DNA from: Escherichia phage F2
Direction: 5' to 3' (one strand)
DNA: 64,000 nucleotides
Sequence record: NC_054913.1
The position numbers and the translations under genes were made by a program. Under the pieces are notes generated by a model. It had not been told where the DNA came from. It was given only the letters and a program-made list of their open reading frames with translations, and made no database searches. Below, piece by piece: positions 5,588 through 55,180 of this stretch (positions within the stretch are counted from its first letter, which is position 1; every line of letters starts with the position of its first letter).

Positions 5588-6247
5588 TTATTTGGCCCTT
5601 CCTAGTATTCGGACCGCTTGGTTGCATATAGCCGCTAAGCGATCCTCCTCAAGTATATTACTCCCCTTATACCAATACATCGTCACAGTTCCGGCATAGA
5701 TGTTATCCAAATTAAAGTATGGACAACTATACATATAAGAAAGTTCGGCAGTCTTAGATTTTGTAGGCAAAAATGCAAATTCTGATTTAGATGAGAAATG
5801 ACGGCCACTTAAATGAATTATATATTCATTGGCCGTTTTATCCACCGGGAATCCGCCAAGGGACTTTTCAGAAATTGTGCTAGGTAGTTTGCCTTCATAA
5901 GCTATAAGGTCGACAAAATAATTTAAGTTTTTAGGTCTGAAAGAATACACAGCACTAAAATCTGCACCAGATGAGATATGAACTATTTGCAGTTGTTCTA
6001 GAGCCGCAGATTCAAAACGTAAAGCTCGTTCTTTTTGGATTATTTCAGTATAAGTATCATACTTAGCTCTTACGTAATAATCCAGCAAAATACTTCCTTT
6101 GTACCATATTAGTGCCATTAGGAACAAAAGAATAATTACCGCTACTCGGGACATTAAAACCTTTCCAGTAGCGTTATCTTTGAAAATACGATCTAGCAAC
6201 CCAAATAGAATATCACTAAGTGAAAATGATACTTTTGGTGTTGCCAT
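5588..6247 (-). CDS. t: holin t
   Basis: 219 aa; N-terminal SFS.SDILFG.LDR.FKDNATGKVL and C-terminal motifs match T4 holin; TM segment VAVIILLFLMALIWY. Confidence 0.95.
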   Translation of the reverse strand: MATPKVSFSLSDILFGLLDRIFKDNATGKVLMSRVAVIILLFLMALIWYKGSILLDYYVRAKYDTYTEIIQKERALRFESAALEQLQIVHISSGADFSAVYSFRPKNLNYFVDLIAYEGKLPSTISEKSLGGFPVDKTANEYIIHLSGRHFSSKSEFAFLPTKSKTAELSYMYSCPYFNLDNIYAGTVTMYWYKGSNILEEDRLAAICNQAVRILGRAK

Positions 6248-6256
6248 AATACCTCC

Positions 6257-6808
6257 TTACTTAAAGATATTTATAATCGCTTTGATAATAGATTTGTTTT
6301 CAAGGTCAGGGAATTTAGGGAATTCACCGCCAAGATGTTCATGTTTTTCTAAAAGGGCAAAGAATTTTTTGAGCTCTTTAAATTTTCGTTTTTCTTCTCT
6401 ATTAGCAACCTCTGCGTCAATAAGAGAACTTAAAACACTGAATAATTTATAGAGTTCATGAATTTTCTTATCACGTTGAACTACGCGTTTATATGCTTCA
6501 TCTTCCTTCCACCCGTCGTCGGTCCAAATGTCAAATTCACCAGGTTCTTCTGTAGTAACATTTTGAAGAGCACCTGGGGTGTCAATAACAATTTTTTGCT
6601 TATCATAAGTCCATACTGTTTTTCCACGATGGTCTTCAACATATACCCATTCTTGTTCGCGTTCATCAAATACAACAGCATAGCCTTCTTTAGGGTCTAA
6701 AGGTTTTTTAATTGTTGAATGAGCGGGAAGACCAAGACCTTTAACCGGTTTGTAATTTTCTTCTTTGTAAAATTCTTTAGTGTCAAAATAATAATGATAT
6801 ATTTTCAT
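6257..6808 (-). CDS. 38: gp38 tail-fibre assembly protein (T4-type)
   Basis: 183 aa; N-terminus MKIYHYYFDTKEFYKEENYKPVKGLGLPAHSTIKKPL matches T4 gp38 as recalled; directly downstream of gene 37. Confidence 0.9.
   Translation of the reverse strand: MKIYHYYFDTKEFYKEENYKPVKGLGLPAHSTIKKPLDPKEGYAVVFDEREQEWVYVEDHRGKTVWTYDKQKIVIDTPGALQNVTTEEPGEFDIWTDDGWKEDEAYKRVVQRDKKIHELYKLFSVLSSLIDAEVANREEKRKFKELKKFFALLEKHEHLGGEFPKFPDLENKSIIKAIINIFK
6268..6275 (-). promoter_or_regulatory. late promoter TATAAATA for t
   Basis: TATTTATA on plus strand equals TATAAATA on minus, about 20 bp upstream of the t start. Confidence 0.5.
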
Positions 6809-6840
6809 ATTTAGAAGGGGCCGAAGCCCCTCTCCTTATG
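6809..6840 (-). promoter_or_regulatory. structured translation initiation region of gene 38
   Basis: On the mRNA, AAGGAG is followed by GGGGC-UUCG-GCCCC hairpin and then 8 nt to the AUG. Confidence 0.5.
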
Positions 6841-9800
6841 CTAAACGAACGATATAGTTAAAAGCAATGTTTTTAACCGTGTTTTCTGTATTACCTGTAC
6901 TATTTACAGTTATTGTATGTCCATGTGAACCAATTGCTACTGAATGGGTGTGAGCACCAATACCAACTGTATGGGTATGAGCACCAATACCAACAGTATG
7001 TGCGTGAGCGCCTGCGCTTGCAGCAGTACCAGATATAGAGTGCGAATGTGCCCCAGAAGAAGAAGAAGTTCCAAGCGTATTACCACCACCGGCGGATCCT
7101 CTTATAGAACCAGTACCAGGAGAGTTGTTACTTCCCGCATAAAGAGCGCTTGTGTGGCTGTGCGCACCGGCGGTGTTTGTGGAACCGCTCAAACTATGCG
7201 TATGAGCACCAGTATTATTACTGGTCTTAGTACCATAGTCGAAACTACTTGTCGTCTTAGTACCATAGTCAAAGCTTGATGTGGTTTTAGTACCTAAATC
7301 TGTGCTTGATGCACTTGCACTATGACTATGAGCCTTAACACCATCTGCCTCAGCGCTCAAAACAGCACGACCACTTGGTTTACCCTTGATAGTTTGTCCA
7401 CGCATATCAGGAATAGTACCTGTAGGATATGCGATAGCGAGCTTAGGATATGCAGACTTATCAAAAGTCTGACCTTCCATTAAAGCAAATCCAGCAGGAA
7501 CTGAATCACTTGGCCACGGAATCGGAGCACCGACTGGATAAGGTATTTGAGCATCAGAATACATCATATACACTTGACCAACAAGGTGACCAGCGGGTAA
7601 TTCTGCGACTGGGGTTTGGGGGCCTTCGTTAATTCCAACAACTGTCACGGCAGAGTTAGACGAACATTCATATTCAACTATTAACGAGTTTGAGAACGTT
7701 CCAACATATACATAAACATCGTAGGTGTCACCTGAAGTATTCATTGTAGCAATATTGGCGAAACCATTGCTGGTTCTAGCCCACATAGTGGCGTTAATAC
7801 CTTTAGGATTATTGTTGCCAGTACGAAGAACTATTTCGGTAATAGTGGCTTGTTCCGGTGAATTAGCATTAAATCCATTACCGCCAATTATTTTAAAGCT
7901 TGCTGTTCCTACAGCTTGTGGAATAGTTACTGTTGCAAATTTATACCATCCGGCGGTTGCTCCACCCTGCCAGCCGCCAGTATTAACTTTACGGTCTAAA
8001 GTAGTGTTTAAGTTAGCAAAGTTACCAGAGCCACCGGTGATATTACCGTCAGTTCCTAAAGTTGCGGCACCTGCAATAATTTTACCAGGTACGCGGAAGT
8101 CACCGGTACGACGGAATTCCCAACTTAAATCAGTTCCGGTAGTACTATTGCCCTGGTGATAATGGACGCGGAAGTCTCCTTGAGAAATTAAGGTGCCAAT
8201 AGAATAAGTGCTATCACCATTTACATACCGTTGTTTAACAATAGGAATGTATTCAGAAGTAGCAGTACGCTCTATATTCATATAAATTGGAGCCCTGACA
8301 TCTGCGTAATTCTGAGATGCAAACGAACCAGCTCCTGCTGGGCGTACCGTATCAGTACATTCGGCCTCAATATATGCAGCCTGACCTAATTGCATACGGT
8401 AATTAGGAGAAATGCGGCTATGACTAGTAACAACAACAATTTTGCTGTCATTGTCCACGGTAATCATATTGCCACCTCTGCCATCATCGCCTAACGTGAC
8501 AGAATGGCGCATTTGAACCATACCATTATTAAGGCCGATACTTAATGGGCGAAGATTACTTATTCCACCGAACCGCCCGGCATCTTTAGGAGTCGGAATA
8601 ATATGCAATGCGGCTTCTGAACGACGGAAAATAGCACCGTATTCAGCATTCCAAATTCTTAATGCATCAGCTGTTCCACCGAATTTAGCTTGACCGTTTA
8701 CAGATAATCCGCTATTAGCAACTAAACTTGATTCAGTAGCAATAGAGCCGGAAGCAGTAATACCACCGGAAGCTAATAATGCTCCAGCAATTCTAAATTG
8801 AATTGGTCCTACAGTTGAACCTGCTGCAGGAGCCGTACGTTGTGCATAAAAATAATAACCTTGGCCGTCAGCAACTTCAAACACAGTTTCACGAGATTTA
8901 TCACCAGACGTATTATTAGCAGTGCCCCATGCTTTAACAGTTACATAACTCTTATTCTGACCTGAACGAGTACCACCTTCCCACACGATTTGCTTAGTGC
9001 CGTCAATACCTGAAGCTGCTTTAAAAACTAGAGAAGCGTTGGTTCCATCACCATTAAAATATAATCCATTATTAAGCTTTAATGTTTGAACAGAAGCAAT
9101 AGTGCCATCGGCACGTAAATTTAATGAATTTGAACCAGTTTTAATATCTAAAATACCAGGCTCAATAAGAAGACCATCGCCCATACTAACAGACATGCGT
9201 CCTTGGCCACGGAAATAGTGATACATTTTAGCGTTAGAACTATAACCGATATGAGTCTGACCATCACCGTTATTATTACCATCAACATCAGTACGCGCAG
9301 TAAACATTGCCTGATTGCTATTAGGAAAATCCCATGTAGTACCAGAATCACGGCTATAACCGACCATCAATTTTTTAGTACTGTTAATACCATTGCTGTT
9401 TATTGTACCCGCAGAAATACCATTCGCAACTAAATCGATAACCCCGTCACGAACCCATTTAATACCAGTATCATTGTCACCAATTGCAATACCTTTACCA
9501 AACGAAACCAATGGATAACGTCCTTGGTCACCAACATCAGCAAGACCTATACCTATCGAATTAGCAACAGACATACGCCCATCTGTGGTATAAGACCATT
9601 GATAAACTTCAGCATTACGTCCCGTCCAATACGAAATATTCTGTGGTTTACCTGAACGAGCATCAGCAACTTCATGGAAAATAGCAGAAGAAACATGTCC
9701 GCGGAATTTACGAAGGTAGTTTATACCATTAGTATCCAAATCCGTTTCGGTTGGAGTATACTGCCAAGTAGGTAATGAAACTAAATCATATGCAGTATCA

Positions 9801-10450
9801 ATATTAGTGTCCCAAGATTTAGTGCTCACATTGATATTTTTGGTAATAACTTTAGGACCAATTAAAGAACCAGCTTTAGTTTCAATATTACTTTGAGTAA
9901 CTAAATATCCATTAGATACTAATAAACTTCCGGAATCAACTTGAAAATTACCGTTTCGATTAAAAGTCCAGTATTTTGAAGTCCCGGTTTCATCAATATA
10001 ATGGAATTTAAAACTACCTTCGTTTACTAATGTACCAGCAGAAAAAGTTCCATCTTTATAGCGTTGTTTAATCAGCGGATGGTATTCTGAAACAGAAGTA
10101 GTTGAACTTAAATCTGTAAAGATAGGGGCTTTATTCAAATGTTGGTTGGCCCAAGCACCATTTCCAGCGGTTTTAGGTAAAAATTCAATATACTTACCGG
10201 CGTAAACGAACATATTACCATTGAGGTTAAATGTGCCGTTTTGTAAATAATCACCATTTTGAGTTACATTACCGTTAATATCCCCGCCCTTAGCAAAGCC
10301 TAGGCTAATAATATTACCGAGGTCATCTTTAGTAAAAAGAGTTCGATCTTTTAAGTTTATCGCTAATTCGCCTTCGGCTAATTGTGCTGCAGTAGGATTA
10401 ACTCCTGCCACTTTGCTTCTTTTAAATTGTATCTGTTTTAATGTAGCCAT
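6836..10450 (-). CDS. 37: gp37 long tail fibre distal subunit
   Basis: 1204 aa; C-terminal repeated GAH(T/S/A)H(S/T) His boxes and ...[11 protein letters not shown] end; position between 36 and 38. Confidence 0.9.
7224..7300 (-). repeat. 30-bp tandem repeat (about 2.5 copies) inside gene 37
   Basis: gtcttagtaccatagtc... repeated; encodes [20 protein letters not shown]. Confidence 0.8.
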
Positions 10451-11148: not shown

Positions 11149-11156
11149 TATTTATA
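11149..11156 (-). promoter_or_regulatory. late promoter TATAAATA for gene 36
   Basis: TATTTATA on plus strand, about 25 bp upstream of the gene 36 start. Confidence 0.5.
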
Positions 11157-19475: not shown

Positions 19476-19482
19476 TAAATTG

Positions 19483-19505
19483 GGAGACTTCGGTCTCCCT
19501 TTTGA
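19483..19505 (+). terminator. intrinsic terminator after gene 32
   Basis: GGGAGAC-TTCG-GTCTCCC followed by TTTTGAG. Confidence 0.65.
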
Positions 19506-25930: not shown

Positions 25931-27070
25931 ATGAGTACAGTTTTTAACACACGACAAGTCGATGTTTTGAATGAACCGATGTTCTTTGGTTCTGGTCTTG
26001 GTATTGCGCGTTATGATATTCAACGCCATAAAGTTTTTGAAGATTTGACCGAAAAGCAATTATCGTTTTTTTGGCGCCCAGAAGAGGTAAACTTGATGTT
26101 GGACTCTGCGCAGTTCAATAAGCTTCCTCAGTTCCAACAGGACATCTTTACAAACAATCTTAAGTATCAATCATTATTAGATTCTATCCAAGGCAGGGCC
26201 CCATCTGCGGTACTTATGGCACTGATTTCCGACCCTTCATTAGATACGTGGGTTGCAACATGGACATTCAGTGAAACTATTCACTCTCGTTCGTATACTC
26301 ATATTATGCGAAATCTTTATACGGATCCATCTAAGGTATTTGATGAAATTGTATTAGACGAAGCAATCATGAAACGAGCTGGATCAATAGGTAAATATTA
26401 CGATGATGTTCTAGTCAAGACTCGCCTTTACCGGAATGCTTTAGAAGAATATCACGAGTTTAGCGAAGGCGTAAAACAGGCTAAATACGAACTAATGCGT
26501 TCTCTTTACCTCTGTCTGCACGTAATCAACGCTCTGGAAGCTATTCGTTTTTACGTATCATTTGCATGTACTTTCAACTTCCATAAAAATATGGAAATTA
26601 TGGAAGGTAATGCAAAGATTATGAAGTTCATTGCTCGTGACGAACAACTCCACCTCAAGGGTACTCAGTACATTATCCGTCAACTTCAATCTGGTACTGA
26701 TGGTGATGAGTGGGTTCAAATTGCTAAAGAATGTGAACAAGAAGCAGTTGACATTTTTATGGAAGTAAATAGACAAGAGAAGGAATGGGCTGCACACCTC
26801 TTTAAAGACGGTACATGCCCAGGTATCAATACGCAGAGTATGTGTGCTTTTGTTGATTACTTGACTGTGTCTCGTATGAAACAGTGTGGTTTGCCATGCC
26901 CAATCACTGATGCTCCGACCAAGCATCCGTATCCTTGGATTCGTGAATATCTGAACTCTGATTTAGTTCAAGCAGCTCCTCAGGAAGTTGAAATCAGTTC
27001 TTATCTTGTCGCACAAATTGATAATGATGTAGACCAAAATGTAATCAATTCATACAAAAAATATTTCTAA
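25931..27070 (+). CDS. nrdB: ribonucleotide reductase beta subunit (intronless)
   Basis: 379 aa contiguous; diiron-tyrosyl radical R2 similarity. Confidence 0.95.
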   Translation: MSTVFNTRQVDVLNEPMFFGSGLGIARYDIQRHKVFEDLTEKQLSFFWRPEEVNLMLDSAQFNKLPQFQQDIFTNNLKYQSLLDSIQGRAPSAVLMALISDPSLDTWVATWTFSETIHSRSYTHIMRNLYTDPSKVFDEIVLDEAIMKRAGSIGKYYDDVLVKTRLYRNALEEYHEFSEGVKQAKYELMRSLYLCLHVINALEAIRFYVSFACTFNFHKNMEIMEGNAKIMKFIARDEQLHLKGTQYIIRQLQSGTDGDEWVQIAKECEQEAVDIFMEVNRQEKEWAAHLFKDGTCPGINTQSMCAFVDYLTVSRMKQCGLPCPITDAPTKHPYPWIREYLNSDLVQAAPQEVEISSYLVAQIDNDVDQNVINSYKKYF

Positions 27071-27072
27071 GG

Positions 27073-27098
27073 ACGGGACTTCGGTCCCACTTTATTAT
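27073..27098 (+). terminator. terminator after nrdB
   Basis: GGGAC-TTCG-GTCCC hairpin followed by ACTTTATTAT. Confidence 0.5.
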
Positions 27099-27507
27099 GA
27101 AAGATATTGCCGCCGAATATTCCTTTATTAAATATACAGAATTGGAGCTATTAGAAGATGCAACAATTAAAACAGTTGATGTCCCTAATAAGAAAAATGT
27201 CATATACGCTATTGCTATAGATGACGAACTTGTGTATATTGGTAAAACCAAGAATTTAAAGAAACGCATTAACTATTATCGAACAGCCATAAATCGAAAA
27301 GACCAGACTTCAGATTCAAGAAAATCACTTATGATTTTGGATGCCTTAATGCAAGGCAAAAAGGTTGAATTCTGGGCCCGCCAATGTTTTGACCTTTCAG
27401 TCACCAACGAACTTGGTTCAATGACCATCGCAACAATGGACCTTGAAGAACCGCTTTTTATCAAAAAGTTCAACCCGCCTTGGAATATCCAACATAAGAA
27501 AAAGTAG
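27097..27507 (+). CDS. denA: endonuclease II (GIY-YIG)
   Basis: 136 aa, same length as T4 DenA; YAIAI.DELVYIGKTKNL.KRINYYRTAINRKD motif. Confidence 0.9.
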   Translation: MKDIAAEYSFIKYTELELLEDATIKTVDVPNKKNVIYAIAIDDELVYIGKTKNLKKRINYYRTAINRKDQTSDSRKSLMILDALMQGKKVEFWARQCFDLSVTNELGSMTIATMDLEEPLFIKKFNPPWNIQHKKK

Positions 27508-35712: not shown

Positions 35713-35717
35713 TTTTA

Positions 35718-35740
35718 GGGAGACTTCGGTCTCCCTTTTG
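35718..35740 (+). terminator. intrinsic terminator
   Basis: GGGAGAC-TTCG-GTCTCCC followed by TTTTG. Confidence 0.65.
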
Positions 35741-36651: not shown

Positions 36652-36658
36652 TTTAACT

Positions 36659-36674
36659 GGGAGCTTCGGCTCCC
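36659..36674 (+). other. GC hairpin without U-tract (possible RNA stability or processing element)
   Basis: GGGAGC-TTCG-GCTCCC directly upstream of the next RBS. Confidence 0.4.
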
Positions 36675-36686
36675 ACTGAGGAAATT

Positions 36687-40787: not shown

Positions 40788-40975
40788 TGAAAGCTTATTT
40801 AGAAACAGTTATTGTAGCTAAGAAGGATGGTGGAGATGTTTCCACCTCTTGCTCTCAGATTATATTAGATTTTCCTAATGAAAATTCGTATCGGGTTTTC
40901 GTAGATAACGTTAATGGGTACGAAAAAGGCCCTAATTTTGAAGTTTATCGTACTTTGCTCCCGATTGTGGATTAA
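40787..40975 (+). CDS. hypothetical protein
   Basis: In-frame ATG at 40787 overlapping the ligase stop (TAATG); 62 aa. Confidence 0.4.
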   Translation: MKAYLETVIVAKKDGGDVSTSCSQIILDFPNENSYRVFVDNVNGYEKGPNFEVYRTLLPIVD

Positions 40976-40996
40976 GAGCCTTCGGGCTCTTTTTGG
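40976..40996 (+). terminator. intrinsic terminator
   Basis: GAGCC-TTCG-GGCTC followed by TTTTTGG. Confidence 0.6.
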
Positions 40997-49802: not shown

Positions 49803-50429
49803 ATGTACAAATATACGTTTACCGTACGTTTAGGCGATAAAGAAGTGAATTGTAGAGCCTTTACTTTAAAAGAATATTTAGGACTCATAGGTGCGCGGGC
49901 TACCGGTACTATTGAATCAGCAGTGAACAATATTATCACTAATTGCTCTAACGCTAAAAACTTGACTAAACAAGAAGCCGAGCTATTGTTGGTAAATCTG
50001 TGGGCACATTCGTTAGGTGAAGTGAATCAAGAACACACCTGGAATTGTTCCTGTGGGCATTCATTTCAAGTCTATATGAATTTATTGCACACTCAATTAG
50101 ATGAACAGGCCGATCCCTGGTATTCGTTCAGCGGTATTAAAATTAAATTCCGTCAACCTAAATTATTTGACGATAAAAATATCGCATTAATGATTGCTTC
50201 ATGTATTGAGGCCGTTTTTGTCAATGGAGAGTCCATCCCTGTTGAAGATTTAACTGAAGCAGAAATAAACGACCTTTACGGCCTTATAACAGAAGATGAC
50301 ATGATCAATATTAAAAATCTTTTAGTATCGCCATCAATTTATCTGGCAACCCCTATTAAATGTCCCAAATGTGGGGCGTCACACGTTCACACAATACGAG
50401 GCCTCAAAGAATTCTTTGAGTTACTATAA
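49803..50429 (+). CDS. 26: gp26 baseplate hub subunit
   Basis: 208 aa, same length as T4 gp26; synteny. Confidence 0.8.
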   Translation: MYKYTFTVRLGDKEVNCRAFTLKEYLGLIGARATGTIESAVNNIITNCSNAKNLTKQEAELLLVNLWAHSLGEVNQEHTWNCSCGHSFQVYMNLLHTQLDEQADPWYSFSGIKIKFRQPKLFDDKNIALMIASCIEAVFVNGESIPVEDLTEAEINDLYGLITEDDMINIKNLLVSPSIYLATPIKCPKCGASHVHTIRGLKEFFELL

Positions 50430-50827
50430 TGTCTAATATCAATAAACTTTATTCAGATATCGACCCAGAAATGCGTATGGATTGGAACAAGGACGTTGCT
50501 CGTTCTGTAGGACTTCGTTCTATTAAAAATAGTCTTCTTGGCATAGTGACAACTAGAAAAGGCTCACGCCCCTTCGACCCTGAATTTGGATGCGATTTGG
50601 TCGACGAACTTTTCGAGAACATGACACCACTTACAGCCGATACGATTGAGCGTAATATCCAGGCAGCTGTTCGTAACTATGAGCCACGCATCGACAAACT
50701 TTCTGTGAGTGTAACGCCAGTATATGATGACTATACGGTTATAGTAGAGATTAGATTTTCGGTCGTAGACAACCCTGACGATATTGAACAAATTAAACTT
50801 CAGTTAGCGTCAAGCAATAGAGTGTAA
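50429..50827 (+). CDS. 25: gp25 baseplate wedge subunit (gpW/lysozyme-like fold)
   Basis: 132 aa, same length as T4 gp25; synteny. Confidence 0.85.
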   Translation: MSNINKLYSDIDPEMRMDWNKDVARSVGLRSIKNSLLGIVTTRKGSRPFDPEFGCDLVDELFENMTPLTADTIERNIQAAVRNYEPRIDKLSVSVTPVYDDYTVIVEIRFSVVDNPDDIEQIKLQLASSNRV

Positions 50828-55151: not shown

Positions 55152-55180
55152 AAGGGGCTTCGGCCCCTTTCTTCGTTTTT
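55152..55180 (+). terminator. intrinsic terminator after hoc
   Basis: AAGGGGC-TTCG-GCCCCTT followed by TCTTCGTTTTT. Confidence 0.6.

Follow-up and report, generated by a model that had tools for sequence, protein, structure and literature searches.

How ribosomes reach the start codon of gene 38 is the question raised by the gene 37-38 junction of Escherichia phage F2, where the only Shine-Dalgarno (SD) sequence of gene 38 overlaps the stop codon of gene 37 and is separated from the AUG by a stable hairpin. The stretch of DNA that was analysed, hereafter the window, comprises 64,000 nt of record NC_054913.1 and belongs to a T4-like phage (Tequatrovirus); the nearest records are those of the phages vB_EcoM_JQD51 and AV117. 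The best overall explanation, to which we assign a probability of about 0.78, is that the junction carries the split ribosome binding site of T4-type gene 38, in which the hairpin shortens the distance between SD and AUG, and that the same hairpin probably has a second role at the 3' end of the gene 37 message. With regard to the biology of gene 38 itself, the analysis adds nothing new: the feature is real, had been interpreted correctly in the first-pass annotation and is known. The additions are modest and concern covariation in the stem, a lower stem that is predicted to compete with the SD, the presence of the hairpin irrespective of the side on which the SD lies, and a candidate split site upstream of denA.

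Layout of the junction and its precedent in T4

Gene 37 is encoded on the minus strand (6836..10450 in the list of open reading frames) and codes for the distal subunit of the long tail fibre, a protein of 1204 aa with the Pfam domains Collar and Phage_fiber, whose product is named 'long tail fiber protein distal subunit' in homologous records. Its UAA stop codon (6838-6836) overlaps the SD sequence UAAGGAG (6832..6838), which was assigned on the basis of the sequence, the energy of the duplex with 16S rRNA and the invariance of its GGAG core (6835-6832). The adjoining C(UUCG)G-capped hairpin (6815..6832), recognized by folding and covariation, is composed of five G/C pairs, one A-U pair and one G.U pair, with the 5' arm at 6832-6826, the UUCG loop at 6825-6822 and the 3' arm at 6821-6815. 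G6832 is the last G of GGAG and at the same time the first base of the stem, where it pairs with U6815. A 6-nt A/U-rich tail, CUAAAU (6809..6814), which contains no SD, connects the hairpin to the AUG (6808-6806) of gene 38 (6257..6808, minus strand), which encodes the tail fibre assembly chaperone, a protein of 183 aa with the Pfam domain Caudo_TAP; the next open reading frame encodes the T holin (Pfam). On the minus strand, the junction therefore reads GCA UAA GGAG A GGGGC UUCG GCCCC UU CUAAAU AUG and, in its wider context, GUU CGU UUA GCA UAA GGAGAGGGGCUUCGGCCCCUUCUAAAU AUG AAA AUA.

The first-pass annotation had placed an AAGGAG sequence behind the gene 37 stop codon, more than 25 nt from the AUG, followed by a stable hairpin beginning with GAGGGGC-UUCG and by another 8 nt. 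Both the SD and the stable hairpin are present; however, the SD overlaps the stop codon instead of following it, and the arms, written with unequal lengths of 7 and 8 nt, form a contiguous stem of 7 bp. The tail is 6 nt long, or 5 nt with C6814 assigned to the arm, and not 8 nt, and the distance to the AUG exceeds 25 nt only when it is measured from the 5' end of AAGGAG; from GGAG to the AUG, the spacer measures 23 nt. The proposed start of gp38 was confirmed: the AUG is the first start codon after the in-frame stop, the N-terminus MKIYHYYFDTKEFYKEENYKP agrees with the annotated gp38 starts in homologous records, and a conventional SD or another in-frame start, which had been named as evidence against this start, was found neither in the sequence nor by a start scan between the gene 37 stop codon and the gene 38 AUG. 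For annotation, the value of the split site lies in this confirmed start codon and in an explanation for gene callers seeing no nearby ribosome binding site. A read-through fusion of genes 37 and 38 was also considered, as both genes are in the same frame in the window; however, the lengths of variant junctions differ by non-multiples of 3, so that such a fusion is not conserved.

A pattern search located the late-promoter consensus TATAAATA nearest upstream of gene 38 in front of gene 36 (11149..11156, minus strand) and the next one inside the end of gene 38, before gene t (6275-6268, minus strand). Since no such consensus was detected on the minus strand between genes 36 and 38, gene 38 depends on the polycistronic 36-37-38 mRNA. 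In time-resolved omics tables for T4 (PMC9697503), which give expression classes, gene 38 belongs to the 'early-RNA, late-protein' class and gene 37 to the 'middle-RNA, late-protein' class, and this difference in RNA kinetics is unexplained by a single late 36-37-38 transcript. An intrinsic terminator at the gene 38 hairpin was rejected: a consensus scan makes no call for the version of the junction present in the window, where the U-tract is weak or becomes part of the stem and the tail is UUCUAAAU, and none for the version of Mosigvirus NBG1, although two Mosigvirus records label the junction 'terminator'. A different, terminator-like C(UUCG)G hairpin with a U-run (11181-11164, minus strand) is found after gene 35 and directly precedes the late promoter of gene 36 (11156-11149); it fits the conserved 35/36 terminator that is noted in PMC1524935.

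The gene 38 junction is the documented split, or non-contiguous, ribosome binding site of T4, as the first-pass annotation had stated. A stretch of 91 nt across the junction is 100% identical to several T4 records, and T4 records with GCCCC in the 3' arm, as in the window, are OZ209023, KJ477685, OL964745 and KP162263. The T4 RefSeq record NC_000866.4 (159622-159651), however, has GCCC where the window has GCCCC (6821-6817), and this one additional C accounts for a spacer of 23 nt in the window compared to 22 nt in the literature. The C missing from the RefSeq record may reflect an old sequencing compression in a G+C hairpin or a real polymorphism. C(UUCG)G intercistronic hairpins of T4 mRNA were reportedly described by Tuerk et al. 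1988. According to a review (PMC3014915, Uzan and Miller 2010), the hairpin shortens the distance between SD and AUG from 22 to 5 nt for gene 38 and from 27 to 11 nt for gene 25; for this class of split sites, the review reports that the effect is enhancing and not inhibitory, and that stem disruption lowers translation while compensatory mutations restore it. A second article (PMC7297116) terms such sites non-contiguous or split and credits Gold 1988 for the case of gene 38 and Nivinskas 1999 for that of gene 25, and a third (PMC4371310) describes the CUUCGG loop as an extra-stable tetraloop first found in T4 mRNA. In the searchable literature, no mutational experiment specific to gene 38 was found; the experiments cited there concern gene 25.

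The window thus shares the locus, the SD, the C(UUCG)G hairpin and the start codon with the gene 38 region of T4, but differs from it in the downstream body of gene 38, which is of the Mosigvirus type and around 70% identical to T4 gp38. Another likeness concerns thrS of E. coli (Sacerdot et al. 1998, as cited in PMC7297116), where a stable hairpin also parts elements of a ribosome binding site and has to be accommodated by the 30S subunit. In thrS, however, the SD is normally spaced, and the hairpin, which acts as a protein operator, lies between this SD and a single-stranded enhancer further upstream, whereas no role as protein operator is indicated at gene 38.

Folding, conservation and a proposed route to the start codon

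RNA folding, which had been suggested as a check, confirmed a stable hairpin. The 32-nt stretch at the junction has a minimum free energy (MFE) of -13.8 kcal/mol (z = -2.66), a value that is equalled in 1 of 200 shuffles, and the 61-nt context reaches -15.6 kcal/mol (z = -2.16). For the hairpin alone, -10.6 kcal/mol are obtained with the 5-bp G/C core and -13.2 kcal/mol with all 7 bp, including the A-U and G.U pairs. A search with the Rfam covariance models yielded no match at E values up to 1 across positions 6000-7600. The duplex between UAAGGAG and the 3' end of the 16S rRNA has a predicted energy of -7.8 kcal/mol, while freeing the SD from the lower stem is predicted to cost 1.3 kcal/mol in the window and 3.6-4.0 kcal/mol in the junctions of NBG1 and slur08; pairing with the anti-SD thus outweighs the cost of 1.3-4.0 kcal/mol, which supports the split-site explanation. 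When the hairpin is discounted, the effective spacer in the window is 6-7 nt.

The conservation of the junction was analysed with 25 loci that encode a T4-type gp38 (Tequatrovirus, Mosigvirus, Gaprivervirus and metagenomic contigs) and that comprise 13 distinct sequences; for covariation, copies of the Citrobacter phage Moon and Yersinia phage X1 junctions were added, leading to an alignment of 15 distinct junctions. All 13 T4-type variants retain GGAG without change, and the same hairpin is predicted in every one of them, with energies of -13 to -18 kcal/mol including the context. The linear spacer between GGAG and AUG varies in length (22-27 nt), but no variant has fewer than 3 or more than 6 nt between the stem and the AUG, and the position of the hairpin is kept despite indels around it. 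Most variants have a UUCG loop; one has UUCU and another UUAU instead. Across the 15 junctions, 98% of the stem cells are paired, compared to 37-79% in slid controls, and the pair next to the loop-closing pair is G-C in nine, A-U in four, C-G in one and G.U in one of them. The observed covariation score was reached in 1 of 500 column shuffles; as only one of the seven stem pairs covaries, the evidence that selection acts on the structure is genuine, though modest. Since the junction is part of a conserved island of around 300 bp, raw sequence conservation is weak evidence. The earlier claim of a conserved, structured initiation region is supported, if modestly, by the paired stem and the compensatory change. 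Scans of IMG/VR with gp38 peptides and with the conserved 3' end of gene 37 retrieved the same two contigs each; the four loci of the metagenome scan carry variants that were all already part of the junction set, and a scan of the genome collection revealed no further junctions.

An SD-start distance above approximately 15 nt, which is regarded as too far for direct use, a stable hairpin in the spacer, the lack of a conventional SD or alternative start and a modest degree of compensatory change characterize gene 38 as a split site. The following route to the start codon can be proposed, in which the geometry on the ribosome, the opening of the stem from its foot and the additional role of the hairpin are inferred. 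Gene 38, which has no late promoter of its own, would be read from the late 36-37-38 mRNA, on which its only SD, UAAGGAG at the gene 37 stop codon, would be too distant from the AUG for direct use. The C(UUCG)G hairpin would fold at once, thereby absorbing approximately 16 nt of the spacer. The 30S subunit could then nucleate on the free UAAGG, and pairing between SD and 16S rRNA would peel one to four weak pairs from the foot of the stem. The remaining core hairpin of 6-7 bp would protrude from the 30S platform and leave a spacer of approximately 6-7 nt, with which the AUG would reach the P site. In addition, the hairpin probably stabilizes the gene 37 message at its 3' end or acts there as a weak attenuator; the split SD would be the means by which it is accommodated. 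Termination-reinitiation could also contribute to gene 38 translation without any need for this geometry, given that just 27 nt separate the gene 37 stop codon from the AUG.

Hairpins with and without a split site

The hairpin also occurs in phages in which the SD is located elsewhere. In Citrobacter phage Moon, whose gp38 has 37% identity, the hairpin comes first and a conventional SD after it (UAA UAGAUU GGGGC-UUCG-GCCCC UCU GAGGA AACU AUG). The same order is found in T2 (UAA AAG AGAGGGC-UUCG-GCCCUCU AAGGA UUUUUA AUG), which encodes a gp38 of the unrelated adhesin type and a gp37 with a different C-terminus. The upstream GGAG is absent in both Moon and T2, where the SD sits downstream of the hairpin; in Moon, T2 and the T4-type phages, the SD is therefore present on one side of the hairpin only. 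A constant hairpin combined with a varying position of the SD is useful for studying how the 30S subunit accommodates structured spacers. The Yersinia phages vB_Yen_X1 and vB_YenM_22, which have genomes of 50 kb and are not T4-like in size, encode a fibre protein of 255 aa that shares 44% identity with the C-terminal ~230 aa of gp37 and ends in the same 17 residues. Its stop codon is followed by the identical GGGGC-UUCG-GCCCC hairpin without SD and then by UUUAUUUUUUU; in X1, the hairpin was called a terminator by the scan (positions 1501-1660 of the X1 piece), and a promoter-like site and an SD that belong to the following gene lie approximately 115 nt downstream. Judged from these sequences, the Yersinia phages suggest that the fibre tip and its 3' hairpin were transferred horizontally as a unit.

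In the window, CTTCGG is found 32 times compared to 16.7 expected occurrences, and none of 100 shuffles reached 32. Eleven of these occurrences form C(UUCG)G hairpins with a stem of at least 5 bp: eight on the plus strand (1153-1178, 2683-2700, 19482-19499, 27075-27088, 35717-35736, 36658-36675, 40974-40991 and 55152-55169) and three on the minus strand (52064-52047, 11181-11164 and 6832-6815, the last being the gene 38 hairpin). In at least 8 of the 11, the stem starts within a few nucleotides of a same-strand stop codon; U-runs come after several of the hairpins, and a conventional SD with a start codon after two. They share the CUUCGG loop and its closing pair with the intercistronic hairpins of T4 mRNA, but most are followed by a U-run or a conventionally placed SD, whereas the SD lies upstream of the hairpin only at gene 38 and denA. 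The gene 38 hairpin is hence a member of a general class of 3'-end hairpins, and in T4-type phages it is located inside a ribosome binding site. As the hairpin is kept in T2, Moon and the Yersinia phages regardless of a split SD, bridging is probably one role among others; the earlier view that the hairpin brings the SD close to the AUG is supported, but not as its sole function. The presence of a hairpin after gene 37 even where the SD is on the other side, and the many C(UUCG)G hairpins behind stop codons, make a second role probable. The data favour a dual role of the hairpin, with the split SD as an accommodation, and leave the published mechanism uncontradicted.

These observations also bear on a different explanation, according to which the hairpin is primarily a 3'-end element of gene 37, i.e., a terminator, an attenuator or a barrier to 3'-exonucleases, while gene 38 is translated mainly by termination-reinitiation and the geometry of SD and hairpin is incidental. 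It could account for the hairpins of T2 and Moon with their downstream SD, for the hairpin and U-run that are called a terminator behind the homologous fibre gene of the Yersinia phages, for the label 'terminator' in the two Mosigvirus records and for the enrichment of CTTCGG and of C(UUCG)G hairpins just after stop codons. However, with a weak or absorbed U-tract, the scan calls no terminator in the window or in NBG1, and a strong terminator would abolish the expression of gene 38, as no promoter consensus is present between genes 36 and 38. Moreover, the upstream GGAG is invariant exactly where a downstream SD is absent, which argues that the upstream SD is used. A function at the 3' end is compatible with the split site as the second role of the hairpin; only the claim that the geometry is incidental is a true rival, and we consider it unlikely.

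To determine how common the layout of the gene 38 site is in the window, the first-ATG starts of open reading frames of at least 60 aa were scanned for an SD, followed by a hairpin, 3-11 nt and the ATG. This layout was found at 4 of 128 starts and at 8 of 1607 control ATGs (Fisher p = 0.009), and without a conventional SD it is present at three starts only, namely those of gene 38, gene 25 and denA. At the junction of genes 26 and 25 (50398-50431, plus strand), GAGG (50398-50401) is followed by a C, the 18-nt hairpin CUCAAAG-AAUU-CUUUGAG (50403-50420), an 8-nt tail and the AUG of gene 25 at 50429. The spacer of 27 nt equals the published value, and the recovery of this documented site serves as an internal control for the scan. 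The T4 gene 25 site (Nivinskas et al. 1999; Malys and Nivinskas 2009) has the same architecture as that of gene 38, but its hairpin is A/U-rich, has an AAUU loop and is much weaker (approximately -7 kcal/mol), its SD lies inside the upstream coding sequence, and the stop codon of gene 26 overlaps the AUG of gene 25 (UAAUG).

The third site lies between nrdB and denA, the gene for endonuclease II (27068-27099, plus strand). The junction reads UAAGGAC GGGAC-UUCG-GUCCC ACUUUAUU AUG, in which the nrdB stop codon (27068-27070) is followed by a 14-nt hairpin (27075-27088) and an 8-nt tail without SD, which ends at the denA ATG at 27097. This junction is conserved in five genera of the Tevenvirinae, with an invariant UAAGG and 24-25 nt to the AUG; relatives that carry it include T2/teqdroes, which has a GCAA loop, Merlin, KP179 and Pet-CM3-4. 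As tabulated directly, the second pair of the stem is A-U, C-G or G-C, and the loop is UUCG or GCAA. Some records annotate the denA junction as a terminator. No description of a split site at denA was found in the searchable literature, which is not proof of novelty. It is tempting to speculate, at slightly less than even odds, that denA is a third split site and that the gene 38 hairpin is older than the split SD, being a 3'-end element of distal tail fibre genes that is conserved in position. By comparison of the junctions, the split SD of the T4-type phages would then be a derived accommodation to the older hairpin at the 3' end of gene 37. If true, an SD that overlaps a stop codon together with a tetraloop hairpin would be a recurrent design of T-even phages and not a pair of curiosities. 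The comparison of hairpin and SD positions and the denA candidate are also useful for the engineering of fibre or chaperone modules across the junction.

Lower stem and mosaic surroundings

Ensemble folding predicts that U-rich sequence on the 3' flank is base-paired most of the time with the 3' half of GGAG, and the last two or three bases of the SD have a predicted probability of being unpaired of 0.01-0.27 in nearly all variants. The lower stem is thus predicted to compete for the 3' half of GGAG, and a structure of this kind could also dampen initiation. On this basis, the structure might be regarded as mainly inhibitory, with the lower stem sequestering the SD and an outer helix between CAUA and UAUG covering the AUG, thereby keeping gp38 at low levels relative to gp37. 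The 61-nt MFE fold includes this weak outer helix over the start codon, and the AUG has a probability of being unpaired of 0.03-0.36 in 12 of the 13 variants. However, the outer helix is missing from the predicted folds of ESCO47 and SP18 and was ruled out as a conserved feature. The pairs over the SD, of the A-U and G.U type, contribute little energy compared to the predicted SD:anti-SD duplex, and PMC3014915 reports enhancement rather than inhibition for the class of split sites. We regard a mainly inhibitory structure as very unlikely, and the split site with a shortened spacer is retained as the explanation of the junction.

Identities obtained with tblastn and sliding identities to T4 and Mosigvirus NBG1 show that the locus is a mosaic. 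A T4-like island (6980-6680, 82-100% identity to T4) extends from the final codons of gene 37 across the junction to about codon 40 of gene 38. The gene 38 body and holin gene t (~6680-5541) are 97-100% identical to NBG1 and 50-87% identical to T4, whereas the tip region of gene 37 (7280-6980 and upstream of 7520) is 30-60% identical to T4 and NBG1 alike. This pattern implies a putative recombination breakpoint near codon 40 of gene 38, at ~6680-6700. That the hairpin lacks a function of its own and is merely carried along with a conserved recombination linker that joins exchangeable modules for the fibre tip and the chaperone would fit the location of the junction in the ~300-bp island between divergent or Mosigvirus-derived flanks, but is hardly credible, since one stem pair shows compensatory change (G-C, A-U and C-G, with G.U as intermediate), the stem is kept where the flanking coding sequence is non-homologous (T2) or distant (Moon), and the position of the hairpin is stable despite the indels around it.

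The annotations of the junction vary among records: one record places a ribosome binding site feature inside the hairpin loop, and others annotate a terminator. In PV204681.1 (JQD51) and PQ765507.1 (phage 212), the product names are apparently shifted by one gene, with gene 37 designated 'tail fiber assembly protein' and gene 38 'holin'. The gp37 protein comprises 1204 aa in the window compared to the 1026 aa implied by the T4 RefSeq coordinates 156542-159622. Near its C-terminus, a long series of His-box repeats such as GAHSHS and GAHTHT is found, and the protein also contains a duplicated motif of 10 residues.
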